Origin: an uncultured Thermus sp.
GTDB taxonomy: Bacteria; Deinococcota; Deinococci; Deinococcales; Thermaceae
Assembly: GCA_947085095.1 (NCBI GenBank)
Contig: CAMTVD010000022.1
Location: 1-64,000, forward strand
DNA: 64,000 nucleotides
Direction of reading: 5' to 3'
Part shown: one piece after another, positions 2,984-42,652 of the stretch
Layout: each line of letters starts with the position of its first letter
Numbering within the stretch: the stretch's first letter is position 1
The notes under the pieces: model-generated
Databases searched by the model: none
The model's input: the letters and a program-made list of their open reading frames with translations, nothing else
Told to the model about the DNA's origin: nothing
Position numbers and translations under genes: made by a program

Positions 2984-5125
2984 TTAGCGCCGCCTCGGGG
3001 GGATCTTGCCTTCCAGCTCGGGGCGGATCAGGTCAATCTTGCCCTTTTCGTCAATGCGGTGGACCTTGACCTTGATCACATCCCCCACCTTGAGGTGGTC
3101 CTCCACCCGTTCCACCCGGCCAGGGGCCACCTGGCTGATGTGGAGAAGCCCCTCGGTGCCCGGGAAGAGGCTGATGAAGGCGCCAAAGGGGGTGATCTTG
3201 GTGACGGTGCCCTCGTAGACCTCCCCCACCTTGGCCTCGCGGGTGAGCTCCTCTATGCGGGCCTTGGCCCTCTCCGCCTTTTCCATGTCGCTGGAGTAGA
3301 TGCGGACCGTCCCGTCCTCCTCAATGTCCACCTCCACCCCAAGCTCCTCCAAGGCCCGCACGTTCTTCCCTCCGGGGCCGATGACCAGGCCGATCTTCTC
3401 CACGGGGACCTTGAGGGCGAGGATGCGGGGAGCAAAGGGCTTGAGGCTTGGGCGGGGGGCGGGCAGGACGCTTTCCATGAGGTCCAGGATCCTAAGCCGG
3501 GCCTCCCGGGCCTGCAGCAGAGCCTCCTTCAGGACCTCCCGGGGGAGGCCGCCCACCTTGTTGTCCATCTGCAGGGCGGTGACCCCCTGGCGGGTTCCCG
3601 CCACCTTGAAGTCCATGTCCCCCAGGGCGTCTTCCAGCCCCAGGATGTCGGTGAGGATCACGGCCTTCTCGTTCTCCCACACCAGGCCCATGGCCACCCC
3701 GGCCACCGGGGCCTTGACGGGCACCCCGGCGTCCATGAGGGCCAGGCTCCCGGCGCAGACCGTGGCCATGGAGCTACTGCCGTTGGACTCCAGGACGTCC
3801 CCCACCACCCGGATGGTGTAGGGGAAGGCTTCCTGGGAGGGGAGGACCGCCCTCAGGGCCCGCTTGGCCAGGTTGCCGTGGCCCACCTCACGGCGGGACA
3901 CCCCTCTGAGGCGCTTGACCTCCCCGGTGGAGAAGGGGGGGAAGTTGTAGTGGACCAGGAAGGGGTCGGTCTCGTCAATGCCCAGGTCGTCAATGATCTG
4001 CTCGTCGCGGCCCGTGCCCAGGGTCACCGTGCCCAGGACCTGGGTCTCCCCCCGGGTGAAGACGGCGGAGCCGTGGGCCCTGGGTAGCACGTCCGCCTCA
4101 ATCCAGATGGGCCTCAGGTCCTTGGGCCCGCGCCCGTCCGCCCGCTTACCCTCCTCCAAGACGAGCCGCCTCAGCTCCCGGCGCACGATCTCGTCAAAGG
4201 CGCTCTCGTAAAGAGGCTTTCTGCTCTCGTCAGGGGCGCCGTCTTCCAGCCTGGGCAGGGCCTCGAGGATAAGGCTCTCGGCAAAGGCCGAAAGGGCCCG
4301 GCTCCTCTCCCCCTTGCTGGCGGTCTGGAGCACCTGGGAGAGCCCCTTTTCCAGGGCCAGGCGGTAGAGGGCTTCCTTCTCCTCCTCCGGGAGGGTTTCC
4401 GGCGGGGTCCAGGCCATCTTGGGCTTGCCCAGCTCCCGGGCCATCCGCTCCTGGAGGTCCAGGATGGGCTGCATCTCCCGGTGGGCGAACTCCAGGGCCT
4501 GGACCAGGGTCTCCTCGTCCACCTCCTGGGCCCCGGCCTCCACCATGAGGATGGCGTCCCGGCTCCCCGCCACCACCAGGTCCAAGGCGCTTTCTTCCAG
4601 CTCTTGAAGCGTGGGGTTCAGGACCAGCTGGCCCCCCAGGAGGCCCACCCGCACCGAGGCCACCGGCCCCTCCCAGGGGATGTCGGAGAGCATGAGGGCG
4701 GCGCTGGCCGCTATGGGCCCCAGGATGTCGGGCGGGTTCTTCTGGTCGGCGGAGAGGACGGTGACGATGACCTGCACCTCGTGGCGGAAGCCCTTGGGGA
4801 AGAGAGGACGGATGGGCCGGTCCGTCATCCGGGCGGAGAGGATGGCCTTCTCCCCGGGACGGCCCTCCCGGCGCATGAAGCTCCCCGGGATCTTGCCCAC
4901 GGCGTAGTGCCTCTCCTCAAACTCCACCGTGAGGGGCAGGAAGTCCGCCTCTATGGGCTCGTCCGAGGCCTGGGCCGTGGCCAGGACCACGGTGTCCCCG
5001 TAGCGCACCAGGACCGAACCCGAGGCCTGCTTGGCGTACTTGCCGGTCTCCAGGACCAGCGTCCTGCCGGCGATCTCCGTCTCGTAGCGGAAACTGGGTG
5101 GGGTGTTGGGTGTGGCTTCTGGCAT
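2984..5125 (-). CDS. pnp: Polyribonucleotide nucleotidyltransferase (PNPase)
   Basis: Two RNase PH domains, [20 protein letters not shown] and S1 domains; ATG chosen at 5125. Confidence 0.98.
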
Positions 5126-18822: not shown

Positions 18823-20805
<1,983 letters not shown>

Positions 20806-20817
<12 letters not shown>

Positions 20818-21328
20818 GTAGACGGCAAAGACCCTAAACCCTTCCATCCACCCCTCCCCGTAGGCCCGGAGATGGAGGCCTGGGGGAGGGGTGAGGAGCT
20901 CCAGGGGTTCCCAGTAAAAGGGGCTTTCCCCCCTGCCCCGCCTCAGGGCCTCCTTGCGCCTGAAGCCCTCCAGGAGGAGAAGCCCGCCGGGGAGGAGGAG
21001 GGGCGGGAGTAGGGCGAGGAGGGGGCGGTTCACGTAGTAGCTCATGAGGATGGCGGCGAAGGGGCCTGGGGGGAGGCTTAGGGGGGTGGCCTCGAGGTCC
21101 AGCTCCAGGAGGCTTAGCCCCGGGGTCCCGGCAAGCCTCTTGAGGGCCTCCCGGCTCCGTTCCACCAGGATCACGGGGTGCCCCCTTTGCAGAAAGTAGC
21201 GGGCGTTCCGCCCCAGGCCCCCTGCCAGGTCCAAAACCGGTCCTTTCGGCACGAAAGGCCCGTAGGCCCGCACCACGAAGGCGGGGGCCCGCTCCTCCTC
21301 CCCTTCCCGGTAATGGGCATCCCAGTCC

Positions 21329-21336
<8 letters not shown>
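20806..21336 (-). CDS. Class I SAM-dependent methyltransferase (TehB-like)
   Basis: VLDLAGGLGRNA. Confidence 0.85.
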
Positions 21337-24722
<3,386 letters not shown>

Positions 24723-24803
24723 CCTTCCAGAATACGCCTGGCTGAGGCCCCCTTTGCATGAAAAAGATTCGTGCACTAAACTTGACATAGGTAGGCTTAG
24801 GCT

Positions 24804-27269
24804 ATGGATGAAGCCGGAGGAACGCTTGCCAGGGAAAGGAGGGAAACCATGCTGCCAGAAACCCTGCCCGTCTGCCCCGTGAGGGGGTCGGTCATCTACC
24901 CCACCATGGTCATGCCCATTGATGCGGGCCGGCCCATCTCCATTCGCGCCATTGACGAGGCCTTAACCCGGGAACGGGTGCTTCTCATCGTGAGCCAGAA
25001 GGACAAGGAGGTGGAAAGCCCCGGGCCCTCGGACCTCTACGAGGTGGGCACCGCCTGCAACATCCTTAAGATGCGCAAGAACCCCGATGGGTCGGTGCAG
25101 GTCTTGGTGCAGGCCTTCGCCCGGGTGCGGGTCAAGGCCTGGCTGGACCGGGGGGACCACCTCGAGGCCCAAGGGGAGGTCATCCCCGACGAGCCCGGGG
25201 ACCCCATCACGGTGAAGGCCCTGATCCGGGAGGTGAAGGACAAGTTCCAGGCCCTTCTCAAGGAGGGGAAGTACCTGCCCCCCGAGGTGGCCCAGTTCGT
25301 CCTCAACCTGGAGGACCCCAGCCAGCTTGCCGACTACATCGCCTTCCACATGGACTTCCGTCTGGAGGACAAGCAGCGGGTTCTGGAGACCGCCGACGTG
25401 GCCGAGCGCCTGAAGCGGGTCCTGGTCCTCCTCGAGGCCGAGCTGGAGCTCATTGAGACGCAAAGGCGCATCCAGCAGCAGGTCAAGGAGGAGATTGATC
25501 GGAACCAGCGGGAGTACTTCCTCCGCGAGCAGATGAAGGCCATCCAGCGGGAGCTTCACGGGGAGGAAGGGGCGGAGGAGGTGGAGGAATTCCGAAAGAA
25601 GATTGAGGCCCTGAACCTGCCTCCCGTGGTGCGCCAGGAGGTGGAGCGGGAACTCAACCGCTTCGCCCGCATGCACCCCGACTCGGCGGAGGCCAGCGTG
25701 GTCCGCACCTACCTGGACTGGATCGTGAACCTCCCCTGGAACGCCCGCACCCAGGACAACCTGGACCTCCACCGGGCCAAGGAGATCCTGGAAAGGGACC
25801 ACTACGGCCTGGAAAAGGTGAAGGACCGGGTTCTGGAGTTCTTGGCGGTGCGCAAGCTGAAGGCGGAACGGGCCAAGCGGGGGGAGATCCCCGAGGAGGA
25901 GGTCAACAAAGGCCCTATCCTCCTCTTCGTGGGTCCGCCCGGGGTGGGGAAGACCTCCATCGCGAGGAGCATCGCCGAGGCCCTGGGGCGGAAGTACGTG
26001 CGCATCTCTTTAGGGGGCGCTCGGGACGAGTCCGACATAAGGGGCCACCGCCGCACCTACATCGGGGCCATGCCCGGCCGCATCATCCAGGGCCTGAGGC
26101 AGGCGGGCACCAAGAACCCCGTCTTCCTCCTGGACGAGGTGGACAAGCTGGGCATCTCCTACCAGGGGGATCCGGCGGCGGCCCTCCTGGAAGTCTTGGA
26201 CCCCGCCCAGAACAAGGAGTTCGTGGACCACTACCTGGGGGTGCCCTTTGACCTCAGCGAGGTGATGTTCATCTGCACCGCCAACTTCCCCCAGAACATC
26301 CCCGCCCCCCTCATGGACCGCATGGAGGCCATTGAGTTCACCAGCTACATTGAGCAGGAGAAGCTGGAGATCGCCAAGCGCTACCTCCTCCCCCGGCAGA
26401 TGCGGGAGACGGGCCTCTCCGAGGGGCAGGTGGTGGTGACCGAGGCCGCTCTTATGCGCCTCATCACCCACTACACCCGGGAGGCGGGGGTCAGGCAGCT
26501 GGAAAGGGAGATCGGGGCCCTTTTGCGCAAGGCCGCAAGGCAGATCCTGGAGGAGGGCAAGAAGCGGGTGCGCATCCTGGAGAAGGACCTGGAGAAGTAC
26601 CTGGGCCCCCCCCGCTTCCTCCCCGAGAGCGAGGCCCGCGAGCCCCAGGTGGGCGTGGCCACGGGGATGTACTACACCCCGGTGGGCGGGGACATCATGT
26701 TCGTGGAGGTCTCCGTGATGCCCGGCAAGGGCAACCTGATCCTCACCGGGCAGCTGGGGGACGTGATGAAGGAATCGGCCCGCGCCGCGCTTTCCTACGC
26801 CAAGAAGAACGCGGGGCGCTTCGGCATCCCCCTGGACCGCTTTGAGAAGAGCGACATCCACATCCACGTGCCCGCGGGGGCCATTCCCAAGGAGGGGCCT
26901 TCGGCGGGGGTGGCCATCGTGAGCGCCCTGGTCTCGGCCCTCACCGGGGTGCCCGTGCGCCACGATATCGCCATGACCGGGGAGATCACCCTCACCGGGA
27001 GGGTGCTCCCCATCGGCGGGGTGAAGGAGAAGGCCCTGGGGGCCAGGCGGGCGGGGATCCGGGAGGTGATCCTGCCCAAGCAGAACGAGCCCGACCTGGC
27101 CGACATCCCGAAGCCCCTCCGGCAGAACATGACCTTCCACTTCGTGGAGCACCTGGACCAGGTCCTGGACCTGGCCCTGGTGGGGGGGATGAAGGCCCTC
27201 GAGGCCCGCGCCCAGGAGGGCAAGACCCCGGCCAAGCGGAGGAAGAAGGAGCTCGTGGCCCACGCCTAA
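24804..27269 (+). CDS. lon: ATP-dependent protease La
   Basis: [25 protein letters not shown]; start may be 24849. Confidence 0.97.
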
Positions 27270-27280
27270 GGCTCCCTGGG

Positions 27281-28375
27281 CTATTCCAAGGCTTTCTCGT
27301 AGACCTCGAGGTACTGCCGGGTGATCCGTTCGGGGTGGAAGCGCTCGGTGGCGTAGGCCCGGGCCCTCGTTCGCATCCGGGGCAGGTCGGGGCTTTCCAG
27401 GAGGGCGAGGACGGCTTCGGCGAAGCCCTCCAGGTCCCCAAGCTCCACCAGCCTCCCCACCTCGGGGGTGATGAGCTCGGGCACCCCGCCCACGGCGGTG
27501 GCCACCACGGGCACGCCCGAGGCCAGGGCCTCGAGGGCCGCCTGGCCGAAGGACTCCTCCTCCGAGGCTAAAAGGAAGAGGTCCCCCGCCCCCAAGACCT
27601 CCTCCGGATGGGGGGTAGGGGGGTGGAAGGTGACCCAAGGGGCCACCCCCAGTTCCTCCGCCACCCGCCGGGCCTCGCCCTCCTCGGGGCCCTTCCCCAG
27701 AAGGAGAAGGCGGGCCTTCACCCGTTTGCGCACCTTGGCGAAGGCCCGCACGATGTCCGGTACCCGCTTGATGGGGCGGAAGTTGGAGGCGTGGAGAAGA
27801 AGCCACTCCCCCTCCTCGGCGTAAAGCCTTTTCCGTTCTGGACGGGGGTGGAAGCGCTCAGGGTCCACGGCGTTGTGGATGACCTGGGGGCGCACGCCGA
27901 AGGCCTTTTCCGCCTCCCTCGCCAGGGCCCGGCTCACGGCGGTGGTGGCCCTGGCCGCCTGGAGGGCCCTTTTGGTGGGCCCGTGGAAGGCGGGGTCTAA
28001 GCCCAGGACGGAAACGTCGGTGCCGTGGAGGGTGTGCACCAGGGGGAAGTCCGTCCCAAAGGCCAGGTAGGCGGCGGCGGCGTGGGGGATGGCGTAGTGG
28101 GTGTGGACCAGATCCAACCCCAGACGCTTGGCCTCCCGCTCCAGGGTGCCCGCCAGGGAAAGGGTGTAAAGGGGGCCGGGGAAGACGGGGTAGTAGGGCA
28201 GGTCCACGGGCACGAAGGCCACGGGGCTCCCCCTGGGGAGGCGGAAGGGGCGCTCGGTGGCGAAAAGGTAGACGCGGTGGCCCAGCCGGGCCAGGCGCTC
28301 CGCCAGCTCCGTGGCCACCACCCCGCTTCCCCCAAGCCCGGGGTAGGCCGCAAGGCCCAGGCGAAGGGGCCTCAC
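27281..28375 (-). CDS. bshA: N-acetyl-alpha-D-glucosaminyl L-malate synthase (bacillithiol)
   Basis: YPGLGGSGVVATEL, HYAIPHA, SNFRPIKR, EESFG. Confidence 0.9.
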   Translation of the reverse strand: MRPLRLGLAAYPGLGGSGVVATELAERLARLGHRVYLFATERPFRLPRGSPVAFVPVDLPYYPVFPGPLYTLSLAGTLEREAKRLGLDLVHTHYAIPHAAAAYLAFGTDFPLVHTLHGTDVSVLGLDPAFHGPTKRALQAARATTAVSRALAREAEKAFGVRPQVIHNAVDPERFHPRPERKRLYAEEGEWLLLHASNFRPIKRVPDIVRAFAKVRKRVKARLLLLGKGPEEGEARRVAEELGVAPWVTFHPPTPHPEEVLGAGDLFLLASEEESFGQAALEALASGVPVVATAVGGVPELITPEVGRLVELGDLEGFAEAVLALLESPDLPRMRTRARAYATERFHPERITRQYLEVYEKALE

Positions 28376-35308: not shown

Positions 35309-35385
35309 CGGGGCGTAGCGCAGGCCGGTAGCGCACCTGCTTTGGGAGCAGGGGGTCGCCCGTTCAAATCGGGCCGCCCCGACCA
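35309..35385 (+). tRNA. tRNA-Pro(TGG)
   Basis: Cloverleaf, anticodon stem CCTGC/GCAGG with TTTGGGA loop, GTTCAAATC, CCA end. Confidence 0.96.
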
Positions 35386-35386
35386 C

Positions 35387-35463
35387 GCGGGAGTAGCTCA
35401 GTTTGGTAGAGCATCGGCCTTCCAAGCCGAGGGTCGCGGGTTCGAGTCCCGTCTCCCGCTCCA
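35387..35463 (+). tRNA. tRNA-Gly(TCC)
   Basis: Cloverleaf, CTTCCAA anticodon loop, GTTCGAGTC, CCA end. Confidence 0.96.
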
Positions 35464-35496: not shown

Positions 35497-35572
35497 GGGC
35501 CCGTAGCTCAGGGGACAGAGCAGCCGCCTTCTAAGCGGTAGGTCGGGGGTTCGAATCCCTCCGGGCCCGCCA
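35497..35572 (+). tRNA. tRNA-Arg(TCT), integration target
   Basis: Cloverleaf, CTTCTAA anticodon loop, GTTCGAATC, CCA end. Confidence 0.96.
35527..35572 (+). repeat. attL (3' 46 bp of tRNA-Arg)
   Basis: CCTTCTAAGCGGTAGGTCGGGGGTTCGAATCCCTCCGGGCCCGCCA. Confidence 0.93.
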
Positions 35573-35613
35573 CCTTCTGAAGGCAAAGCTTCCGCACTCG
35601 GAAGCTTAGGAAT

Positions 35614-35713
35614 GGGTCAAGCTGACCCCCATACTTGACCCCCAAAGGAAGGGCAAACCTCTCCCCCGGCCTCGAGGCCGGGGGGCGGTTTTGGGGGTCA
35701 GCTTTAGGGGTCA
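35614..35713. repeat. TGACCCC motifs, putative integrase arm-type sites (left end)
   Basis: Direct copies at 35623 and 35636; inverted copies at about 35614 (partial), 35693 and 35707. Confidence 0.7.
35663..35692. terminator. GC hairpin between the tRNA operon and the integrase 3' end
   Basis: CCCCCGGCCTCGAGGCCGGGGG palindrome followed by GCGGTTTT. Confidence 0.55.
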
Positions 35714-36853
35714 GGCCTGAGGCCTGGGGCCCGCCACCAGGTCCTCCGGGTCAAAGGTCCAGGCCTCCCTCTCCCGGGCCAGCAGGTGGCGGTAAATGTC
35801 CAGCGTGATGGAGGGCCGCGCATGGCCCAGGCGGGCCGCCACCACCTCCGGCGGTGCCCCTTCGGCCAGGAGCATGGAGGCGAAGGTGTGCCGGAGGTCG
35901 TGGGGCCGTATGGGGGGCAGGCCCACACGGGCCACAATCTTCCGAAGGGCGTGGGCCAGGCTATGGGGGTTGAGGGGCTGGGAGGGGTCCTTGGCGCTCG
36001 GGAACACCCAGGCCTCCCGAAGGTCCAGGGGGTCCATACCCGTTTCCACCAGGGCCTCCCACCGGGCCCGCAAGTGCTCCAGGGTCTTGGGGGGAACGGG
36101 AATGGTGCGCAGGCTGGAGGGGGTCTTGGGGGCGGTGAGAAGCCCTTTGCCTCCGAGGTTGGTCCAGGCCCGGCGCACGGCCAGGGTCCCCGCCCTAAAG
36201 TCCAGGTCCCCCCACTTGAGCCCCAGGGCCTCCCCAGGCCGGAGGCCCACCGCCAGGCAAAGGCGCAGGGCCGTGCCTACCTCCCAGGTGGGCCAGGCGT
36301 CCAGGGCCTGAAGGAGGGCGGCCACCTCGTGGGGCTCCAAGGTCCTCCCGGCGGTGCGGCGCGTGGGGGCCTCGAGGCGGATGGAGGCCGTGGGGTCCCG
36401 GTGCACGACTTCCAGGGCCAGGGCCTCCCTGAAGATGGCCCGCAAGTGGGTCAGCGCCTTGCGGATGGCCCTCGGGCCTAGCCCCTGGGCGGCCATGCGG
36501 TCCAAGGCCTCCCGGATATCGGCAGGCCTGATGGCCTGGAGCCGCTTTTCCCCCAAGTGGGCCAGGAGGTAGCCCACTTCCCGCTGGTAGTTGACGAAGG
36601 TCTTGGGGGCCAGGGTGGCCCGCTTGCGGGCAAGCCACCCTTCCGCGAAGGCGGCCAGGGTGGCGGCGCTCTTGGCGGGCAGGAGGCCTTTTTCGTGCTG
36701 GGCCACAAGCTCCCGCGCCTTGCGCAGGGCCTCCTCGGCAGTCTTGCCGAAGACGCTCACCCGCCTATACCGCCCATCGGGCTCCCGGAGGTAAGGGCGC
36801 ACCTCCCAGCGCCCATCCTTACGCTTGCGGGCCTTCAATCCTTTCTTGGGCAT
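35711..36853 (-). CDS. int: Tyrosine recombinase / phage-type integrase
   Basis: N-terminal arm-binding domain (RKDGRWE); GLRPGE, PKT, HDLRH, LGH and catalytic Y (IYRH) all present; GGAGG RBS. Confidence 0.96.
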   Translation of the reverse strand: MPKKGLKARKRKDGRWEVRPYLREPDGRYRRVSVFGKTAEEALRKARELVAQHEKGLLPAKSAATLAAFAEGWLARKRATLAPKTFVNYQREVGYLLAHLGEKRLQAIRPADIREALDRMAAQGLGPRAIRKALTHLRAIFREALALEVVHRDPTASIRLEAPTRRTAGRTLEPHEVAALLQALDAWPTWEVGTALRLCLAVGLRPGEALGLKWGDLDFRAGTLAVRRAWTNLGGKGLLTAPKTPSSLRTIPVPPKTLEHLRARWEALVETGMDPLDLREAWVFPSAKDPSQPLNPHSLAHALRKIVARVGLPPIRPHDLRHTFASMLLAEGAPPEVVAARLGHARPSITLDIYRHLLAREREAWTFDPEDLVAGPRPQA

Positions 36854-37095
36854 AACCTCCTCTACCCTACCATTCCACGGGGGGGCGGCGTGGGCTTCGC
36901 GAAAGTTTTGTTTCGCGAAGGTTGCCGGGGGCAACCCGTCAACCCATGACGCGAAGGGGGAGTAGCCTGGGGGTTCGCCCCCGGGTTTTTCCCGGCGAAA
37001 GTTTGCGCCATTTCCCCCACGCTGAGGGGAAGGCTCCTCCCCCTCGTGTGGGGAAGGTTCTGGGGCTTTCTAGCCCTGCCGTTTTCCAAAGAGGG

Positions 37096-37377
37096 CTACC
37101 CCTCCTCGTCCAAGGGCCACTCCGCCGCGGTGAAGGAGAGGGGATGGGGCTCCGCCTTCGGCGCGGCGGCCAGGGCCAGCTTGAGGGCCAGGGCGGCCAC
37201 CCGGGCCTTGTGCTCCGGGTTGAGGCCTTCCGCCTCCTCCAGGGCCTTCTCCAGGACCGCCACGGCCTTGCCCCCAAGCCCGGCCAGGCGCGTGCGCCAG
37301 GCCTCGGCCTCCTCCCACCGGGCGCGGGCGGCCTCGTACCGCTCAGTCCACTTCGGCTTCGCCTTCGCCTTCCTCAT
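37096..37377 (-). CDS. Small helical hypothetical protein (93 aa)
   Basis: AGGAGG RBS before ATG 37377; overlaps the upstream gene. Confidence 0.65.
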   Translation of the reverse strand: MRKAKAKPKWTERYEAARARWEEAEAWRTRLAGLGGKAVAVLEKALEEAEGLNPEHKARVAALALKLALAAAPKAEPHPLSFTAAEWPLDEEG

Positions 37378-37912
37378 CTTCCACCTCCTTGAGCTTGAGC
37401 CCGGAGAAGAGGGCTTCCAGCGCCTTGCGGAAGTCTTTGCCCAGGTCCTCGGCCAGGGCCTCGGGGAAGGCCCGGAGGGCGTACCTCCCCCACATGGGCA
37501 GGCCAAGGTCCAGGGCCCGGTCCTTCCCCCCTCTCCGGGCCTGTGAGAGGTAGCCCAGGTGGGCGCACTTCCTGCAGAGGAGCCCCCGGTGGACCAGGTA
37601 GAGCACCCGGCGGTTCCCCCCGCACCCGGGGCAGACGAAGACCCACTCCACCCCGAAGGGGTGCCTCACCCCCTTTAGGCTCACCACTTGCTCCCCGAAG
37701 GCCAGGCAAACGGGCGGCCTCTCGGGGAGGGGGCGGCCCGTCTTCATCCGCCACCACTCCGCCAGCCACGCGGCCCAGATTTGGGGGGTTCGTTCGGCAA
37801 TCCCCTCCCAGGGCCTTCCCGGTCCCCTCCCCAGCCCGGGGAGAGGGCCGCGCCTTCCCGCCCCGAGGGCGGCCCTAAGCGCCAGGTCCAAGTCCCTGAT
37901 TTCCTCCATCAT
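37343..37912 (-). CDS. Zinc-finger hypothetical protein
   Basis: CPGC...RVLY...CRKCAHLGYLSQ. Confidence 0.75.
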   Translation of the reverse strand: MMEEIRDLDLALRAALGAGRRGPLPGLGRGPGRPWEGIAERTPQIWAAWLAEWWRMKTGRPLPERPPVCLAFGEQVVSLKGVRHPFGVEWVFVCPGCGGNRRVLYLVHRGLLCRKCAHLGYLSQARRGGKDRALDLGLPMWGRYALRAFPEALAEDLGKDFRKALEALFSGLKLKEVEDEEGEGEAEVD

Positions 37913-37937
37913 CGTCTAACCCCCATGCCGAACGGGC

Positions 37938-38273
37938 TTACGCCCCCACCTCCTCACGCCGCTTCACCCGGGCCCGGGCGATGGGCTCAAGCCGGGGCGG
38001 GTTCCCGGCCCAAACTCCCAGAAGCTCCACCTCCTGGGCTTCCGGCCAGGCCTCCTCCAGGAAGCTCAACCGCTCCACCAGCCAGGCCTCGAGGCTCGGG
38101 GCGTTCTGCCCAGGCCAGGCGGCGTGGGCCTCCAGGTCCTCCTCCTCCGGCATGGCCAGAGCCCAGTAGAGCACCCGGCCATCGGCCACCACCCGGACCT
38201 TAGGCGGGCGCATGGCGCGCACCTTGGCCGCGAGGTCCGGGGCCAGGGTGATGAGCTTCCGCCAGGGGCTCAC
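37938..38273 (-). CDS. Hypothetical protein
   Basis: GTGA overlap with the helicase stop; GGAGG RBS. Confidence 0.7.
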   Translation of the reverse strand: MSPWRKLITLAPDLAAKVRAMRPPKVRVVADGRVLYWALAMPEEEDLEAHAAWPGQNAPSLEAWLVERLSFLEEAWPEAQEVELLGVWAGNPPRLEPIARARVKRREEVGA

Positions 38274-40183
38274 AGCTCCACCTCCACCTCGTCCTCCTCT
38301 TCCCCCCGGGCCGTTTTAGAAAGAGGAGGGGCAACACCTCCCGCATCCCCCGCATCCCCCGCAAACGGCGTCCTGGAGCCGTTTAGTACGCGCGGGGGTT
38401 GTGCGGGGGTTGCGGGGGATTGCGGGGGTTGTGCGGGGGGTTGCGGGGGTTGCCCCTTCCATCCCCCGCGCTCAGGAGTGTCGTCCTGGAGCCGGGTTAC
38501 GGGGGTTGCGGGAGTTGCGGGGGATGCGCCGCTACTCCTTTCTAAAACCCAGAGGAGGCGCTTGACCCGGGCGTCCCGCACCCCCTCCACCTTCAGCCCC
38601 ACCCCCCGGAGGGCGGCCTGGACGCGGGGAAGATGTTTGCCCAGCCCGGCGGGGGTGCGGGGCCACCCTTCGGGCTTGACCCGGGCGTCCTTGAGGCCCA
38701 TCGCCTCCTCCAGGGCGGCCAAGAGTTCCGATGCGGAAAACACGGCCCGGTGCCCCTCCGGCCAGTCGGCGGTGAAGAGGAGGAGGGCCTGGGCCACGGG
38801 GTCGTTGTCCAGAAGGTCCTGGTTGAGCCCGGCCTGCACCGCGTAGAAGGCCGCCACCACCTCCCCGGCCTCAAGGCCCAGGGCGGGGGCGGCGGCCTCA
38901 GCCCAGATGGCCCAATCGGCTAGGCGGGGCAAGGAGGGCAGGGCCTTCCGCGCCACCTCCCAGCGCCTCAGGGCCAGGACCACGGCGTCCAGGAGGGCCC
39001 CCAGGGCCTGGGGGTGGGCCCGGGCAAAGGCCTCCCAAATCTCCCGTTCGGGGCGGCGCTCCCCGTCCTCCAGCCGCACCAGGTTGACCATCGCCACCCG
39101 GTCGGCCAAGTCGTCCCGGAGGATGCCGAAACCTATCCCCGTGAGGATGACGGGCCGTTGCGCCTCCAGGACGTGCTCTTCCGAGTCCGAGTAAAGCTCC
39201 CTCTTGCCCAGCCCGCCCCCGGTGGAAAGGCGGCATAGGGCGTCCGAAAGCCAGGTGGGTATCTTGGAAAGGTTGTCAAAGGCCAGTACCCAGGACCCCT
39301 TGGCGCCCACCATCAGCGCCTCCACGTCCTTGGGCTCAGCCCGTAGGGCGGCCTCCTGGGGGTCCACCAGGGCCTTGAGCACCCTCGCGGCGGTGCTCTT
39401 CCCCGCCCCCTTCTCCCCGGCCAGGACCAGGATGGGGTACGGGCCTTGAGGGGAGAGGGCCCCCACCAGCCACCCCAGGACCAGGGCCACGTCCCGGCGC
39501 TCCCTCAGGGGCAGGAGTTCCAGGAGGGGGGCTAGACTGCCGCCACGCTCAGGGAGGGGGAGGGGCTTCTGGTGCCGCCCCCGGCGGAAACGCACCGGGG
39601 CCTCATGGGCCGGGATGATGCGCCACCCCGAGGGGTCTACCTCCACCACGCTCCAATCGGGCCGGGCCAGGTCCAGGTACACCTTGCCCTCCCACCCGGC
39701 CAGGCGTGTGTGCACCTCGTGCTCCTCCCCCTCAAAGAGGGCCTTCGCCTCCAGGACGGCCAGGGCGTCTTGGAGGGCCTGGGCGTAGAGAGGCTTGCCC
39801 CTTTCCGCGTAGTAGAGCCCGGCGAGCCAGGTGCGAAACTCCTTGCCCCGCAGGGGATGATGCTCCACGTGCCCCTCCCGGGACAGGGTGGCCCAGGCCT
39901 CCTTGCTGGGGGTGTGCCAGAGCTTAGGGCCGGCCTTCAGGGCCAGGTCTACGGCGTCCTTGGCGGCGGTGGCGTCCTCCTTCTTGGGGCCCAAGAAGTC
40001 CTGCCAGGCCAGCCGCACCGCCTGCAGGGTGGCCCCCACCCGCTTGGCGGCCTCCCGCAAGACGGCTTCCGCCTCCACGGCGTCCAGGCCCGCCTCCACG
40101 ATGGCCTCAAAGAGGGACTGCCTGACCCGGCCCCAGTTCTCAGGGGCCAAGCCCTCCAAGATGGCGCGGATGGCCTCACTCAT
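38270..40183 (-). CDS. Primase-associated P-loop helicase/ATPase
   Basis: Walker A GEKGAGKST, Walker B VLAFDN, downstream of PrimPol; low-complexity C-terminus. Confidence 0.85.
   Translation of the reverse strand: MSEAIRAILEGLAPENWGRVRQSLFEAIVEAGLDAVEAEAVLREAAKRVGATLQAVRLAWQDFLGPKKEDATAAKDAVDLALKAGPKLWHTPSKEAWATLSREGHVEHHPLRGKEFRTWLAGLYYAERGKPLYAQALQDALAVLEAKALFEGEEHEVHTRLAGWEGKVYLDLARPDWSVVEVDPSGWRIIPAHEAPVRFRRGRHQKPLPLPERGGSLAPLLELLPLRERRDVALVLGWLVGALSPQGPYPILVLAGEKGAGKSTAARVLKALVDPQEAALRAEPKDVEALMVGAKGSWVLAFDNLSKIPTWLSDALCRLSTGGGLGKRELYSDSEEHVLEAQRPVILTGIGFGILRDDLADRVAMVNLVRLEDGERRPEREIWEAFARAHPQALGALLDAVVLALRRWEVARKALPSLPRLADWAIWAEAAAPALGLEAGEVVAAFYAVQAGLNQDLLDNDPVAQALLLFTADWPEGHRAVFSASELLAALEEAMGLKDARVKPEGWPRTPAGLGKHLPRVQAALRGVGLKVEGVRDARVKRLLWVLERSSGASPATPATPVTRLQDDTPERGGWKGQPPQPPAQPPQSPATPAQPPRVLNGSRTPFAGDAGDAGGVAPPLSKTARGEEEDEVEVEL
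38335..38528. repeat. Iteron-like TGCGGGGG(T/A) array, putative replication origin
   Basis: About 9 direct copies at 9-11 bp spacing and about 4 inverted copies. Confidence 0.7.
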
Positions 40184-41066
40184 GGGCCACCCCCTTCGCC
40201 CGGGCCCGGCGGTTCAAGGCCCAGCGCATCCGAGGGGGGAGGGGGTGAGGGTCCTCTAGGATGAGCGGCCTCGCCTCTCCTACCCTCAGCCCCCACCGCG
40301 CCGCATCCCGGGCCTCCCGCTCAGGTAGCCCGGCCCGCATAGCGGCGGCTACCAGGGCCTCTTCCGCCTCCTCCGGGGAGAGTCCATGGGGGATTAGCCC
40401 CCCCGCGGCCACGGCGTAACGGATGAGGGTGTTGTGCCTCTGCCCCTCCGGGGTGCGGGCCACTTGGGCGGCGTAGGCCTGGAGAAGGGCCTGCAGGCGC
40501 TTGGGGCTCGTCCCCCCCTCGGGAGTCCACACGCTCCTGGGAGGAGGAGGCGGCGGGGGGAGGAGCTTCAAGAGGAGGCCCCGGGGCACCGGGGGAAGCC
40601 CCTCCGGCCTCACCAGGGGCACCTCCCACTCGTAGCCCCTCCCGTCCTTGAGCCCGGTAGGCGCGGCCACCACATAAGCCCGACCCATGCCCCGGAGGTC
40701 TACCCCCTCCAAAACCCGCACGCTGGCGGAAAGCCTCACCCCCTCGGGAAGCCGGAGGAAAAGGTGTACCCCTCCCTTGGGAGTCCTTTGCCTTGGGGCG
40801 GCCTCGAGGGCGGGGTGCTCCTGCCTCAACCCCTCCCAGGCCGTGGGGTCGTCAAAGTCCAGGACCAAGACCCCCTCCGGGGCCAAGAGCCCCACCCCGG
40901 CCTCGGGGCAGGCCCGCCACCAGGCCTCGAGGGTGGCGGGGTCCTGGGAGGCCTCCTTGAGCCCGTGGGGCACCAGCCGGGGGTGGGGGCGCTTCTCCCC
41001 GGGGAGGAGGGGAAGGACGGCGTAGCCCAGACGGGCGTAGCCCAGGACGTGCTCAATCGGCCTCAT
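40176..41066 (-). CDS. Bifunctional DNA primase-polymerase (AEP Prim-Pol), TthPrimPol-like
   Basis: VLVLDFD, TPKGGVHLF, VDLRG motifs and PriCT-like C-terminus (EGQRHNTL); closely resembles T. thermophilus HB27 PrimPol as recalled. Confidence 0.93.
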   Translation of the reverse strand: MRPIEHVLGYARLGYAVLPLLPGEKRPHPRLVPHGLKEASQDPATLEAWWRACPEAGVGLLAPEGVLVLDFDDPTAWEGLRQEHPALEAAPRQRTPKGGVHLFLRLPEGVRLSASVRVLEGVDLRGMGRAYVVAAPTGLKDGRGYEWEVPLVRPEGLPPVPRGLLLKLLPPPPPPPRSVWTPEGGTSPKRLQALLQAYAAQVARTPEGQRHNTLIRYAVAAGGLIPHGLSPEEAEEALVAAAMRAGLPEREARDAARWGLRVGEARPLILEDPHPLPPRMRWALNRRARAKGVAHE

Positions 41067-41247
41067 TACTCACCTCCTCCTCCTGGGCCAGGGCCGCATC
41101 AATGAGGAGGTCAATGCGCTTGCGGGCGTCAATGCGCTCCCCCCAGGGAAGGGCCAGGAAGATAGCTTGAAAAGCGTCTAGCAAGATGGCGGTTTCCTCT
41201 TTGGCCCCCTCGGGCGTTATGATGACCACAACGGCACGCACGGCCAC
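41053..41247 (-). CDS. Small hypothetical protein
   Basis: 64 aa ORF filling the gap between xis and PrimPol, overlapping the PrimPol start. Confidence 0.55.
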   Translation of the reverse strand: MAVRAVVVIITPEGAKEETAILLDAFQAIFLALPWGERIDARKRIDLLIDAALAQEEEVSNEAD

Positions 41248-41250
41248 CCC

Positions 41251-41457
41251 CTACCGCCCCCGAGGCCCCCCCTCGGGGCTCGCCTCCTCGTCCAGGGGCA
41301 TCCCCAGCAGGCGCTCCAGCTCCTTCCTGGGGATGATGAGCCTCGCCCCCAGGCGGGCCGCCCTCAGCTCCCCCCGCCAGACCAGCCGATAAATGTGGTT
41401 TGGATGGACTCCAAGTGCCGAAGCCGCTTCCTTGACGCTCAGTCCAAGCTTACGCAT
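41251..41457 (-). CDS. Excisionase-like helix-turn-helix DNA-binding protein
   Basis: LSVKEAASALGVHPNHIYRLVWRGELRAARLGARLIIPRKEL (HTH_17 pattern). Confidence 0.88.
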   Translation of the reverse strand: MRKLGLSVKEAASALGVHPNHIYRLVWRGELRAARLGARLIIPRKELERLLGMPLDEEASPEGGPRGR

Positions 41458-41536
41458 GTTTTTGCCCCGCTTTTCCGCGCCCAGGGAGGGGCACCCTGGA
41501 CGGGCCTGACGACCTAAAGCCGCAAAACCTACGGCT

Positions 41537-42205
41537 TCAGGCCGCCAGGGGCGGGGCAACAGGGGCGATGACCAGGCTTCGGGTCAGGTTTTGCGTGGGG
41601 TCTTTTGGCGGTGCCCTTTCCTGGTAGCTTTCGGAAAGGGTCTTCTGGGGTTCGTGAGTCAGGCGGATGAGGTCAAAGACCAGAATAAGGAGCGCGCTCA
41701 GAGCTTTAAGTGCGGCTTTAAGAGCTTCGTTAAGCGTCTTGCCGCGCCTTAGGCTCTGCAGGTAAACGAAGAAGAGCTTAAGCACCCGCTCATGGGGCAA
41801 CCTCCGGAAGCGGATCCGCGTCCCCCCGCGCTTGGCGGCCCTCCCCCTGAAGAAAACACCTTGAGCAAGGTGCCGCCCTACTAAAGAGAGGTAGTTCAAT
41901 AGAGGCCTAAGTGCCTCAAAAAGGTTATCCCGCGCGTCTTGCAGACTTCTGATTACAGCCCCTGCCTCTCCGGCCAGGGGGGCCATCGCCTCAAGTGTCT
42001 GGTGTAGCGTCCTCCTGGCGGGTTCCGCCGCCTTAAGTGCCTGGTGTAGAGTCCTCCTAGCGGTTTCCACCGCCTCGTTAAGGTTCCTTAAGGTTTCCTG
42101 GGGAAGGGTCCAGGTGGCGGCGTAGGCCTCAACAGAGGCCTGAAGGTTCCTCACGGCTTCGCTTTGGGCGAAGTGTTGTAGCTTGGCCGTGAGTCCCCCT
42201 TGCAT
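41537..42205 (-). CDS. Orphan cargo/regulatory protein
   Basis: 222 aa, visibly lower GC, internal 42-bp tandem duplication, own promoter. Confidence 0.65.
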   Translation of the reverse strand: MQGGLTAKLQHFAQSEAVRNLQASVEAYAATWTLPQETLRNLNEAVETARRTLHQALKAAEPARRTLHQTLEAMAPLAGEAGAVIRSLQDARDNLFEALRPLLNYLSLVGRHLAQGVFFRGRAAKRGGTRIRFRRLPHERVLKLFFVYLQSLRRGKTLNEALKAALKALSALLILVFDLIRLTHEPQKTLSESYQERAPPKDPTQNLTRSLVIAPVAPPLAA

Positions 42206-42214
42206 CTTGCCCCT

Positions 42215-42243
42215 ACCATAGCACGCCCCCTCTTCACTCGCAA
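42215..42243 (-). promoter_or_regulatory. Putative main promoter of the element
   Basis: TTGCGA-N17-TATGGT with extended -10 TG, 9 nt before ATG 42205. Confidence 0.6.
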
Positions 42244-42309
42244 TACCATGACATCACCCCACAAAACCTTTTCTTGCAAAGGGTTCTTTTCGTGGGATAG
42301 CTTCACGGG

Positions 42310-42356
42310 TTGACCCCCAAACTTGACCCCCATTGACCCCCAAAACTGACCCCTAA
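42310..42356 (+). repeat. Four tandem TGACCCC motifs, putative arm-type sites (right end)
   Basis: Copies at 42311, 42324, 42334, 42347. Confidence 0.72.
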
Positions 42357-42452
42357 CCGGAGGTAATCCAAGGTAATGCCATCCCGGGGAAAACGCGTGT
42401 AGGACGCCGATTTTTGCAATAACGGGTTATCGGAGGTTAGGGGTCTTCGCCT

Positions 42453-42498
42453 CCTTCTAAGCGGTAGGTCGGGGGTTCAAATCCCTCCGGGCCCACCA
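42453..42498 (+). repeat. attR (displaced 3' half of tRNA-Arg)
   Basis: 44/46 identity to attL. Confidence 0.93.
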
Positions 42499-42652
42499 GG
42501 TCAGGGACGCAAAACTTTACCCCTCGGTAGCGTGGCCGGGGGTGCTTTGCTGGTGGAAGGCCTCCCCCAGGAGGGCTGGTCTGGCTGGGGAAGGGGCGTT
42601 TGTAGCTTGCGAGCCCTTGCCCCAAGGGGTAGGCTTGCGGGTGGAGGTTGGT

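Follow-up and report, generated by a model that had tools for sequence, protein, structure and literature searches.

What kind of element interrupts the tRNA-Arg(TCT) locus of this uncultured Thermus sp. contig, whether it can still excise and replicate, and how it reaches new hosts are the questions raised by 6,926 bp of DNA between two copies of an att core. The data pointed to a genuine integrative element that is site-specific and brings its own replication module. We consider it, with a probability of about 0.85, to be an ICETh2-like Thermus tRNA-specific integrative element that presumably can excise, probably replicates by itself and has no recognisable transfer machinery.

Integration site and attachment sequences

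In the 64-kb window (the whole stretch of DNA analysed), ARAGORN and Rfam identified an intact tRNA-Arg(TCT) gene at 35497-35572 (+), preceded by tRNA-Pro and tRNA-Gly genes. Its 3' 46 nt constitute the attL core (35527-35572, +), and a displaced 3' part of tRNA-Arg at the far end constitutes the attR core (42453-42498, +). The direct repeats covered 35523-35572 and 42449-42498, with a spacing of 6,926 bp; a core length of 46 bp was retained because identity to the tRNA begins at 35527 in all attR copies compared. The tRNA call and this spacing confirmed the preliminary description of an integrative element of about 6.9 kb in tRNA-Arg(TCT), and its att length of 46 bp stood; the two copies are imperfect, being identical at 44 of 46 positions. 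The two mismatches, G/A at 35553/42479 and 35569/42495, count against the main reading. They affect what we take to be the T-loop purine and the discriminator of the tRNA, and both fell on naturally variable tRNA positions in the alignment. Crossover probably takes place in or near the anticodon loop. Native tRNA-downstream sequence directly followed the attR core, positions 42506-42542 matching at 89% the sequence directly 3' of the uninterrupted tRNA-Arg gene in genome G003. The assembled contigs of public runs contained no clean attP or attB junction and revealed neither an excised circle nor an unoccupied site for this particular element.

Both ends carried the arm-type repeats announced earlier, 8 of the 10 matches to YTGACCCCY in the window falling within 35622-35714 and 42310-42354. 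The integrase-proximal arm (35573-35714) comprised hairpins at about 35586-35607 and 35663-35684 together with four of these repeats, two direct (35622-35643) and two inverted (35693-35714), and its predicted RNA fold (-75.5 kcal/mol, z -4.57) was equalled by 0 of 200 shuffled sequences. The distal arm (42310-42354) comprised four direct repeats.

Genes and candidate replication origin

Every convincing ORF of the element was located on the minus strand, in agreement with the co-orientation previously noted; they encode a tyrosine integrase, an Xis-type HTH protein, an AEP PrimPol, a D5/SF3-type helicase and five orphan products. The integrase gene (35711-36934, -; PF00589, E 7.6e-29; phrog_1, E 2.4e-78) is an ORF of 407 codons whose true start is likely M28, at 36853. 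All the catalytic residues ascribed to it were located (R232, K270, H345/R348, H371, Y381), and they aligned with those of the Lalka27a integrase (45% identity over 374 aa, E 7e-98). Substitutions by codon position relative to element L020 were 33/22/67. The HTH protein (41251-41559, -) matched PF12728 (E 1.4e-13), phrog_66 and TIGR01764 (43 bits, cut-off 28.8), which supports its designation as xis-like; it may act as an excisionase or regulator, its true start is likely M35, at 41457, and it shared 45% identity over 51 aa with a Lalka 'transcriptional regulator'.

The primase-polymerase (40176-41066, -, 296 aa) was assigned, as initially proposed, to the AEP superfamily (PF09250, E 4.8e-30) and to the TthPrimPol group. 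Its motifs D70xD72, H101 and D123 were located, and residues D70, D72, H101 and D123 were invariant in 24 sequences; identity amounted to 78-86% with T. thermophilus PrimPols, 83% with that of T. oshimai JL-2 and 78% with that of SG0.5JP17-16. The neighbouring 637-aa protein (38270-40183, -) had no family above threshold in Pfam, PHROGs or NCBIfam, but its earlier annotation as a helicase was upheld by an AF2 model (pLDDT 82.3) that matched D5/SF3-type primase-helicases in Foldseek: AsfvPrimPol (8iqi_C, E 9.2e-11), the SaPI5 primase-helicase (7ola_C, E 3.5e-9, TMt 0.59) and further SCCmec Cch (5dgk_B), the NrS-1 CTR, MPXV E5 and VACV D5. Its Walker A motif is G256EKGAGKST, and K262 and D303/N304 were invariant in 38 sequences. 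The C-terminal part of this protein, which probably serves as replication initiator, comprises a winged-helix-like domain (approximately residues 479-549) and a tail that is disordered from residue 554 on.

The iteron array reported previously mapped to the 3'-terminal part of the helicase gene, a location newly described here, in the segment that encodes the disordered tail. Between 38313 and 38548, (T/G)TGCGGGGG occurred in three inverted copies and in two direct sets, of six and three copies, the whole being bracketed by an imperfect inverted repeat of 65 nt. All 5 exact matches to TTGCGGGGG fell within 38347-38523, inside the helicase ORF, as did 10 of the 42 matches with at most one mismatch. 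The core TTGCGGGGG also occurred in L019, L020 and L021, whose helicases are 85-98% identical; L022, with a helicase only 67% identical, showed the same position and layout with the core ATAGCCGCA/TTGCGGC. This comparison, also new here, suggests that the iteron sequence changes when the helicase changes, and the region 38313-38548 is a candidate replication origin.

The five small or orphan ORFs counted in the preliminary description were retained, all on the minus strand. The one at 37096-37506 (136 aa as listed, GC3 0.88) likely has its start codon (ATG) at 37377, for a product of about 93 aa; it was 98.5-99% identical in L020, L021 and L107. Neither it nor the 64-aa acidic protein (41053-41247; 97-98% identical in L020 and L021) had a family match in Pfam, PHROGs, NCBIfam or PADLOC. 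The 189-aa protein (37343-37912) displays a zinc-ribbon motif (CPGC at 94, CRKC at 113) and, judging by its homologues, is a member of a conserved family: 86 representatives were retrieved at E<=1e-3 and 38 at E<=1e-10, with C94, C97, C113 and C116 invariant or nearly so. Its AF2 model (pLDDT 80.1) gave no match in fold searches, and substitutions by codon position relative to L019 were 36/32/61. The 111-aa protein (37938-38273) is conserved beside the helicase in numerous PrimPol elements of Thermus, was 57-99% identical in L020, L021, L022, L106, L107, L108 and L111, and showed 10/11/33 substitutions by codon position relative to L022. The 222-aa protein (41537-42205), encoded by the first gene of the leftward string, had a lower G+C content, a GC3 of 0.67 and a weak coding signature; it was 72% identical in L020 and 100% in L021, with substitutions of 25/25/32 by codon position and no usable match in Atlas. 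ORF 42151-42333, considered as a sixth orphan gene, is probably non-coding, its substitutions by codon position being 9/11/2.

Searches of Pfam, PHROGs, NCBIfam and PADLOC yielded no capsid, terminase, relaxase or T4SS family, although orphan ORFs might still encode such functions; the claim that transfer and capsid genes are missing held for recognisable ones. The element likewise had no divergent master repressor, as stated beforehand, and no regulator was identified in it. A promoter-like TTGCGA-17 nt-TATGGT arrangement, noticed by eye at 42215-42243 (-) with its end 9 nt upstream of the start codon (ATG) of the 222-aa ORF, is proposed tentatively, since a consensus promoter scan of the element gave nothing at threshold.

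For excision, origin function, regulation and transfer route, we infer the following course. The tyrosine integrase would bind the arm sites (YTGACCCCY) of either end and recombine the 46-bp core, the element supplying a replacement 3' half of tRNA-Arg(TCT), and the HTH_17 protein would act as directionality factor. The excised circle would replicate from the iteron origin within the 3'-terminal part of the helicase gene: the helicase would use its C-terminal winged-helix domain to recognise the iterons and would unwind the DNA, PrimPol would prime and a host polymerase would extend. Spread from cell to cell would require outside help. The replicative role of PrimPol is not safe because, in HB27, Ppol was dispensable for ICETh2 replication, and post-excision replication was low (PMC7693054).

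Modular exchange and CRISPR targeting

The same compact element occupied the same tRNA in G004 and G006, its gene set being common to three species, while larger relatives of 13 kb occupied it in G005 and G031. The tRNA-Arg sites of G003 and G013 were empty, and that of G019 held a decayed remnant with a truncated integrase only. The arms (35.5-37.9 kb and 40.9-42.45 kb) were 99-100% identical to L021, which occupies tRNA-Arg in another species of Thermus, and the PrimPol-helicase core (38.3-40.9 kb) showed 99-100% identity to L019, which comes from a third species, lies in tRNA-Val(CAC) and has an integrase only 40% identical to the one studied here; the stretch at 37.9-38.3 kb was 100% identical to L020. 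Judging from these alignments, the element is a three-parent mosaic of modules swapped between Thermus species, which had not been noted before. Left host flanks were 66-87% identical to G004 and 72-90% to G006, and flanks were only 66-87% identical in the species whose element shares the 99-100% identical arms. Since the high-identity blocks begin and end at the att sites and not in the flanks, site-specific integration is a better explanation than uptake of DNA with homologous flanks.

Two CRISPR spacers, one from a phage and one from a host array, matched the element, a further new observation. Spacer 1 of the Cas12r-CRISPR array of phage Lalka27b matched the PrimPol gene at 31 of 32 positions (40615-40646, -; 40615-40649 with its flank). 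The 5' flank of this protospacer, AAG (40647-40649), fits the 5'-ARG PAM published for Lalka Cas12r (bioRxiv 10.64898/2026.04.20.719267, consulted in part); the best matches of the other 12 long spacers reached 18-22 of 32-33. Spacers of Lalka8 matched three related PrimPol loci, L107 at 32/33 and L110 and L109 with 3-4 mismatches. The second protospacer lies in the helicase gene (40034-40065) and matched, at 30 of 32 positions, a spacer of the host array G021:C234 from another Thermus genome (21 repeat copies, 60-62 nt spacing).

Possible modes of spread and related systems

A mobilisable or defence-type island other than a phage satellite has an even chance of being the correct account. Such an island would be excised by its integrase and moved by natural competence or transjugation, as proposed for ICETh2 with ICETh1, and phages would target it because of competition for tRNA att sites or of PrimPol-helicase interference with incoming DNA. 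In HB27, ICETh2 transfer was tied to ICETh1 transjugation, and Ppol was a barrier to competence-acquired DNA (PMC7693054). The 100% identical blocks across species, with breakpoints inside the element, fit frequent exchange in a naturally competent genus, and targeting by a host CRISPR spacer also agrees with this account. Against it stand the blocks that end at the att sites, the lack of any PADLOC defence family at a meaningful level and the translocase content of the host: no TdtA-like second translocase was seen, since an FtsK/SpoIIIE-family search of this 93%-complete assembly returned a single gene, the chromosomal one of 910 aa.

It is possible, though rather doubtful, that the element is a true phage satellite. 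A Lalka-like myovirus, or some other Thermus phage, would then on infection trigger excision, replication from the iteron origin and packaging in helper capsids, probably as concatemers, at a cost that the phage would counter with Cas12r-CRISPR spacers against the replication genes. The satellite-like character put forward initially gained one direct argument, the Lalka27b protospacer with its correct PAM. The Lalka8 matches, the resemblance of the integrase and the Xis-like protein to Lalka proteins (45% each) and the lack of transfer genes among the families searched (Pfam, PHROGs, NCBIfam, PADLOC) are consistent with it, and the same proposal, as possible Lalka satellites, was made for such elements in the part of the preprint consulted, where Lalka spacers target 15 protospacers in them (bioRxiv 10.64898/2026.04.20.719267). 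The replication module further recalls that of SaPIs, in which a Pri-Rep acts with an iteron origin, and the fold match of the helicase agrees with this. However, the element had no capsid-size, terminase small-subunit or packaging gene, no pac/cos similarity and no divergent master repressor; DNA similarity to phages was limited to the integrase (3 records), IMG/VR viral contigs held no close relative (helicase matches only 24-42% identical), the 93%-complete assembly contained no Lalka TerL or capsid gene, and packaging has never been demonstrated for any member.

An immobile deletion remnant of a larger prophage or ICE, to which the imperfect att copies, the true remnant in G019 and the 13-kb elements on the same tRNA might point, is very improbable in view of the compact gene set kept in three species, the blocks 99-100% identical to other species' elements, the coding-type substitution patterns of int, orf189, orf111, hel, ppol and xis, the intact arm sites, the position of both att differences at variable tRNA sites and the CRISPR spacers of two origins.

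The main reading, an ICETh2-like integrative element, can be placed among several known systems. Prochlorococcus tycheposons, likened here by description only, share a tRNA-specific tyrosine recombinase, tRNA-Arg(TCT) among their sites, xis and primase/helicase hallmark genes and, as further likenesses, modular exchange, tandem arrays and decayed remnants beside the tRNA, according to the portion consulted of bioRxiv 10.1101/2020.12.28.424599; they were also found in capsid and vesicle fractions. Tycheposons belong to another phylum and in many cases harbour cargo or capsid and terS genes. Like the present element, SaPI/PICI and SCCmec modules combine an integrase, xis, a primase and an initiator helicase of SF3 type with the logic of an iteron origin, and the helicase model matched both SCCmec Cch and the SaPI5 primase-helicase. 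In contrast to these systems, PrimPol and helicase are separate genes here, with the origin inside rather than beside the helicase gene; the element also has no Stl-type divergent repressor, no recognised packaging or capsid-remodelling genes and no known helper.

Closest were ICETh2 and its relatives. The suggestion of an undescribed Thermus satellite family was not sustained, such elements being already described in PMC7693054 and in the part consulted of bioRxiv 10.64898/2026.04.20.719267. ICETh2 relatives of 7,567-12,041 bp were described in 2020 (PMC7693054, citing Baquedano et al. 2020), some of them, at 7,567-8,726 bp, in the size class of the present element. Since its PrimPol is 83% and 78% identical to those of T. 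oshimai JL-2 and SG0.5JP17-16, both listed as ICETh2 relatives (PMC7693054) and used as proxies for the HB27 ICETh2 proteins, it can be linked to this family. [quoted passage not shown] ICETh2 of T. thermophilus HB27 is larger and inserted elsewhere, as noted earlier (11,276 bp, in tRNA-Val; PMC7693054), against 6.9 kb in tRNA-Arg(TCT) here; the present element has no peptidase or transposase genes, and its integrase is only 40-43% identical to those of the tRNA-Val elements examined.

The Thermus tRNA-specific IEs of the preprint, in the part consulted, are 6-15 kb long and encode an integrase, ppol and a helicase (bioRxiv 10.64898/2026.04.20.719267). All their structural features were found here: the integrase gene lies on the strand opposite to an intact tRNA and 139 bp beyond it, a partial tRNA of 46 bp is present upstream, ppol and a helicase are encoded, the size falls within this range and there is a Lalka protospacer with a 5'-ARG PAM. 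The term 'tRNA-Arg' is absent from the preprint's main text, and the part consulted mentions neither an iteron origin within the helicase gene nor a mosaic of three parents nor a host spacer.

Integration site and its occupancy

The assembly containing the window, as contig C22, comprised 2.08 Mb in 41 contigs and was 93% complete. Its nearest relatives were 31 genomes of the same genus, the named ones all being Thermus species. Three tRNA genes, Pro(TGG), Gly(TCC) and Arg(TCT), were found by ARAGORN, the last of which (35497-35572) was confirmed by Rfam. The 3' part of this tRNA-Arg gene was repeated 6,926 bp downstream (35523-35572 versus 42449-42498, 47 of 50 positions identical). When two uninterrupted tRNA-Arg genes and a remnant were aligned with four attR copies, the similarity of each of the latter to the tRNA broke off immediately to the left of 35527; the att core was therefore set at 46 bp from this position, in agreement with the preliminary description. 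The attL and attR cores were identical at 44 of 46 positions, with G/A differences at 35553/42479 and 35569/42495, which we take to be the T-loop purine and the discriminator base. The T-loop A of the variant copy was also present in the functional tRNA-Arg of another Thermus genome, G019. Sequence following attR (42506-42542) was 89% identical to that found directly 3' of the uninterrupted tRNA-Arg of genome G003, which places the right boundary at 42498/42499, and the working tRNA therefore takes its 3' half from the element. The partial tRNA lay at 42453-42498, and the integrase stop codon was at 35711, against a tRNA end at 35572. Eight of the ten matches to YTGACCCCY in the 64-kb window were located in two arms (35622-35714 and 42310-42354), which is the pattern expected of arm-type integrase sites.

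The same site was occupied, decayed or empty in other Thermus genomes. Genomes G004 and G006 carried the same compact element in tRNA-Arg(TCT), at about 7.1-7.2 kb, and G005 and G031 carried 13-kb relatives. At the G019 site (locus L155, G019:C4:425500-431000), all that was found was a truncated integrase (residues 104-407, 71% identical) accompanied by arm-type repeats; a second att copy was absent, and the right flank was 93% identical to that of the window. This locus is a decayed relative of the element. In G003 and G013 the tRNA-Arg gene was uninterrupted and a second att copy was absent from the next 12 kb.

Assembled contigs of public runs contained no clean attP or attB junction, the uncovered parts being uninformative. 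One low-depth contig (depth 6) of a hydrocarbon metagenome, run X6, joined 42485 back to 35663 with 21 unrelated letters in between; it could represent an attP or a tandem junction of a variant element and is too weak to be used. Contig joints from 35352-35451 to about 42467 were assigned to other tRNA genes, since their anticodon loops differ. RNA-library contigs of run X15 covered parts of 38338-40256, where DNA carry-over is possible.

Gene content and candidate replication origin

The element was filled by ten minus-strand ORFs, and every family match was on this strand. Strong coding composition was displayed by five of them, namely int, orf189, orf111, the 637-aa ORF and a 296-aa ORF (GC3 of 0.86-0.90, well above GC2); the right-hand 1.4 kb of the element had a lower G+C content (57-66%). 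Family searches identified a tyrosine integrase (PF00589, E 7.6e-29; phrog_1, E 2.4e-78), an excisionase-type HTH protein (PF12728, E 1.4e-13; TIGR01764 above cut-off) and a PrimPol (PF09250, E 4.8e-30, positions 3-156 of 158 covered). The integrase motifs R232, K270, H345-x-x-R348, H371 and Y381 aligned with those of the integrase of Thermus phage Lalka27a (45% identity over 374 aa). Residues D70, D72, H101 and D123 of PrimPol were invariant in 24 sequences, and the AEP motifs DxD, sxH and hD, as defined in PMC5862659, were all present. The C-terminal helical domain of PrimPol (residues 176-263; 40176-40541) shared 39% identity (E 3e-9) with the C-terminal portion of a 207-aa Lalka27a 'primase' (L113:20274-20897), which adjoins the DnaB-like helicase of the phage.

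Substitutions relative to orthologous elements followed a coding-type codon-position pattern in int, orf189, orf111, hel, ppol and xis. These counts were uninformative for orf64 and the 93/136-aa ORF, both near-identical everywhere, and gave a weak signal for orf222, the first gene (25/25/32). Within this 222-aa ORF, a 42-nt tandem duplication was observed at 41978-42061 (two copies, 81% identical; repeated peptide RRTLHQ.L.A). A further ORF, orf60 (42151-42333), was rejected as a gene: its substitutions by codon position were 9/11/2 and its start lay inside the arm repeats. No usable match for orf222 was returned by the Atlas search, which placed orf189, a zinc-ribbon orphan, in unnamed clusters; the orf189 model had no fold match (best Foldseek E 0.56 in PDB and 0.09 in BFVD, VIA-wide Z 2.7). 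Against PADLOC, the orphans had two sub-threshold matches alone, mad1 (E 0.0016) and JetC (E 0.0042). A promoter scan of the element found none, and the same scan counted five terminators where 7.4 were expected.

The 637-aa protein had sub-threshold P-loop matches alone, with no sequence-family model in Pfam, PHROGs or NCBIfam. In its AF2 model (pLDDT 82.3, pTM 0.72), an SF3 ATPase core with Walker A and B motifs is predicted between a D5_N-like domain and a winged-helix-like C-terminal DNA-binding domain, followed by a disordered tail from residue 554. Foldseek returned 279 matches at E<=0.001, AsfvPrimPol (E 9.2e-11) ranking first; SaPI5 primase-helicase (Pri-Rep; E 3.5e-9, TMt 0.59), SCCmec Cch, the C-terminal region of NrS-1 and poxvirus D5/E5 were also among the top matches. 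Residues K262, D303 and N304 were invariant. On this structural model, the protein is assigned as a D5/SF3-type primase-associated helicase. Its homologues numbered more than 3,180 among 8,000 candidates scored, many being fusions of about 900 aa to PrimPol, PriCT or toprim domains, and at least 585 loci among 603 candidate stretches were confirmed in genomes of many phyla. The family occurred in Planctomycetota, Chloroflexota, Acidobacteriota and others, and on IMG/VR contigs (loci L026-L105 and L160-L223).

All five exact matches of TTGCGGGGG in the window fell within 38347-38523, as did 10 of the 42 matches with at most one mismatch. This iteron array consisted of three inverted, six direct and three direct copies, flanked by a 65-nt imperfect inverted repeat, and was located inside the helicase ORF, over the stretch coding for the disordered tail. 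The array itself encodes the proline/glutamine-rich tail (residues ~554-637; 38270-38520), the sequence of which may have arisen as a by-product of the origin without being selected for its own sake. The iteron core was conserved where helicases were 85-98% identical. The element of genome G005, with a 67% identical helicase, had an array of equal layout and place, but its iteron was ATAGCCGCA/TTGCGGC. Such joint change of iteron and helicase would be expected of an origin and its initiator, and we infer a putative origin function for the array. SaPI origins follow the same iteron-initiator logic.

Complex prediction weakly suggests that PrimPol contacts the N-terminal 90 residues of the helicase (median score 0.40; runs 0.51, 0.00 and 0.40; run agreement of at least 0%; partner pLDDT of at least 71), the best of three controls scoring 0.00. 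Of 157 solved complexes, 116 reached the mark applied to such scores, as did 2 of 215 mismatches; it was reached at <=0.60 by 18 of 157 and both mismatches. The score was not counted as evidence because custom alignments were fed in.

These results bear out the preliminary description as regards the integrase, the xis-like HTH, PrimPol, the helicase, the orphan ORFs and their common orientation, as well as the arm-type repeats and the iteron array.

Module exchange and CRISPR targeting

Within the genus, present genome included, the helicase was found in 7 of 32 genomes and PrimPol in 11 of 32. Identity in 200-bp steps showed that the element is a three-parent mosaic. Its outer parts (35.5-37.9 and 40.9-42.45 kb) were 99-100% identical to the tRNA-Arg element of G004, the helicase and PrimPol region (38.3-40.9 kb) was 99-100% identical to a tRNA-Val(CAC) element of G006 whose integrase was just 40% identical, and the interval between them (37.9-38.3 kb) was 100% identical to a second G006 element. 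The left flank, belonging to the host chromosome, was 66-87% identical to G004 and 72-90% to G006. The orf136-orf189-orf111 block was 96-98.5% identical at the amino acid level in a tRNA-Val(CAC) element of G003. The high-identity blocks started and stopped at att sites. Such sharing across species is most readily accounted for by recent horizontal movement, together with recombination among elements, and the element records a very recent exchange of whole modules across Thermus species and tRNA sites.

Thirteen long spacers from the arrays of three Lalka phage genomes, which carry Cas12r-CRISPR arrays, were compared with the element. One of them, spacer 1 of Lalka27b, matched at 31 of 32 positions in the PrimPol gene (40615-40646), with AAG directly 5' of the protospacer, which fits a 5'-ARG PAM. 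This protospacer may be listed already in Table S5 of bioRxiv 10.64898/2026.04.20.719267. The best alignments of the remaining 12 to the element were 18-22 of 32-33 positions; the seven spacers of Lalka8 and the single one of Lalka27a had no match to it (best 19-22 of 32-33). Lalka8 spacers matched PrimPol elements of genomes G003, G026 and G029 (L107:6447-6479, 32/33; L110:11648-11681, 31/34; L109:9279-9312, 30/34 aligned). The spacer behind the L110 and L109 matches was present twice in the Lalka8 array. A host array was found in genome G021 (L225, G021:C234:1-1500), with 21 repeat copies at a spacing of 60-62 nt, and one of its spacers matched the helicase gene at 40034-40065 (30/32). Two neighbouring spacers of this array (1049-1079 and 1110-1140) were identical duplicates.

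A second PrimPol element was detected in the same genome, on contig C21 (7,755 bp in tRNA-Val(TAC), ~20119-27925; L010:8120-15926). It had a diverged att copy, and its PrimPol and integrase were 54% and 42% identical to those of the tRNA-Arg element. Its helicase-like gene was of another type (AAA_16 and HTH, 581 aa), with about 60 N-terminal residues common to both helicases. PrimPol in Thermus elements was followed by either of two unrelated helicase types.

Class assignment and the satellite question

A plasmid origin was rejected, as no DNA match of the element was found among 72,556 plasmid records, and so was a phage remnant, as only the integrase matched among 50,697 phage records (three records, 66-74%). 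In IMG/VR, a single-protein query found nothing; with an alignment query, 64 of 577 stretches encoded relatives, all distant (24-42% identity).

Families of capsid, terminase, relaxase, T4SS or defence proteins had no match among the 10-11 ORFs scanned against Pfam, PHROGs, NCBIfam and PADLOC, in line with the earlier statement that transfer and capsid genes are lacking. An ICE in the strict sense differs from the element by its relaxase, coupling protein and mating-pore genes, none of which were matched in these ORFs. PICI-like satellites differ by their divergent master repressor: the plus strand inside the element had no ORF of coding-type composition, and the absence of such a repressor had been correctly noted in the preliminary description. 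No packaging or capsid-redirection family (terS, cpm, ppi or like) was matched in the same four databases, five orphans being left without assignment.

The element corresponds best to classes already described. ICETh2 of T. thermophilus HB27 (PMC7693054) spans 11,276 bp with 13 ORFs and has a tRNA-Val gene as its site, the att being 47 nt long; it is therefore larger and sits in a different tRNA, as the preliminary description stated. Its excision (1e-4 to 1e-5) needs Int2/Exc2 and is UV-induced, Ppol being dispensable for its replication and a barrier to transformation in HB27; relatives of 7,567, 8,006, 8,726 and 12,041 bp occur in other Thermus strains (PMC7693054). The search rule of that report, as far as its available part goes, combines a Ppol of 40% identity or more and a coverage of at least 60%, Hel (TTC0657) within 10 kb of ppol, Int2 of at least 40% within 20-30 kb, and a tRNA beside the integrase with a 45-50 bp repeat of the tRNA 3' end at the far end. 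The PrimPol of our element was 83% identical to that of T. oshimai JL-2 and 78% to that of SG0.5JP17-16 (coverage 88-92%), both listed there as hosts of ICETh2 relatives; the Ppol likeness holds indirectly, through these relatives and not through the HB27 protein. The helicase gene lay next to ppol, and its product shared 59% identity with T. oshimai JL-2 Theos_1692, possibly the Hel of the ICETh2-like element in that strain. The integrase was 40-43% identical to those of tRNA-Val elements (L010, L019, L107, L108 and L110), taken as stand-ins for HB27 Int2, and the 46-bp core (44/46) with its 6,926-bp spacing agreed with the site part of the rule.

The integrative elements (IEs) of bioRxiv 10.64898/2026.04.20.719267, in the part available, are 6-15 kb Thermus elements matched by most Lalka Cas12r-CRISPR spacers (PAM 5'-ARG); they sit in tRNA genes, encode integrase, ppol and helicase, and are proposed as possible Lalka satellites. 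Our element has an intact tRNA before the integrase and a partial tRNA at the other end, a ppol (PF09250) and an SF3-type helicase fold within 6,926 bp, and a protospacer that is matched by a Lalka spacer and carries a 5'-ARG PAM. It has all structural features of IEs and agrees with the ICETh2 rule so far as this is testable. The term 'tRNA-Arg' was absent from the main text of the preprint, and a literature search found no further paper on such Thermus elements. The preliminary description had proposed an excision- and replication-competent element depending on a helper, possibly of an undescribed satellite family. The mechanism stands and helper dependence would still be suspected, but the family had already been described, as ICETh2 relatives (PMC7693054) and as IEs (bioRxiv 10.64898/2026.04.20.719267), in the available parts of both sources.

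That the element is a phage satellite is doubtful. A candidate helper could be the prophage on contig C3 (272-1360 and 11044-12294), whose large terminase shared 97% identity with its counterpart in Thermus phage Riverbug and whose nearby integrase was the closest paralogue of that of the element (47%), or the one on contig C4, where a second, distant terminase (36%) was observed at 3484-4674. Lalka TerL and capsid genes had no match in the 93%-complete assembly, whose incompleteness may hide them, and the FtsK/SpoIIIE family had one match only. A more far-reaching reading, to which we would give a probability of about one in four, is that of a true satellite of Lalka-like Thermus myoviruses. 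Here orf111, the helicase with its built-in iteron origin and PrimPol would form a cassette swapped between elements of different tRNA specificity, partly through escape from phage- and host-borne CRISPR spacers hitting this core; the zinc-ribbon orphan and the 222-aa first gene would be helper-sensing or helper-interfering parts. If this satellite reading is true, the elements would give thermophilic bacteria their first satellite family.

New in our data are the candidate origin in the helicase gene with iterons shifting along with the helicase, the near-identical modules in a mosaic common to several species and tRNA sites, the empty and decayed sites, and the two CRISPR matches. The element is a compact and cleanly bounded example, and since the iteron changes with the helicase, origin and initiator function are directly testable. 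The family is also the source of TthPrimPol, an enzyme for whole-genome amplification. The conflict between phages and elements proposed in the available part of bioRxiv 10.64898/2026.04.20.719267 is confirmed for one concrete element, with the addition that a host CRISPR array also targets the replication core. Should the elements prove to be satellites, Thermus would join ICP1 and PLE as a model system, one that is thermophilic, genetically tractable and equipped with a CRISPR countermeasure encoded by the phage.
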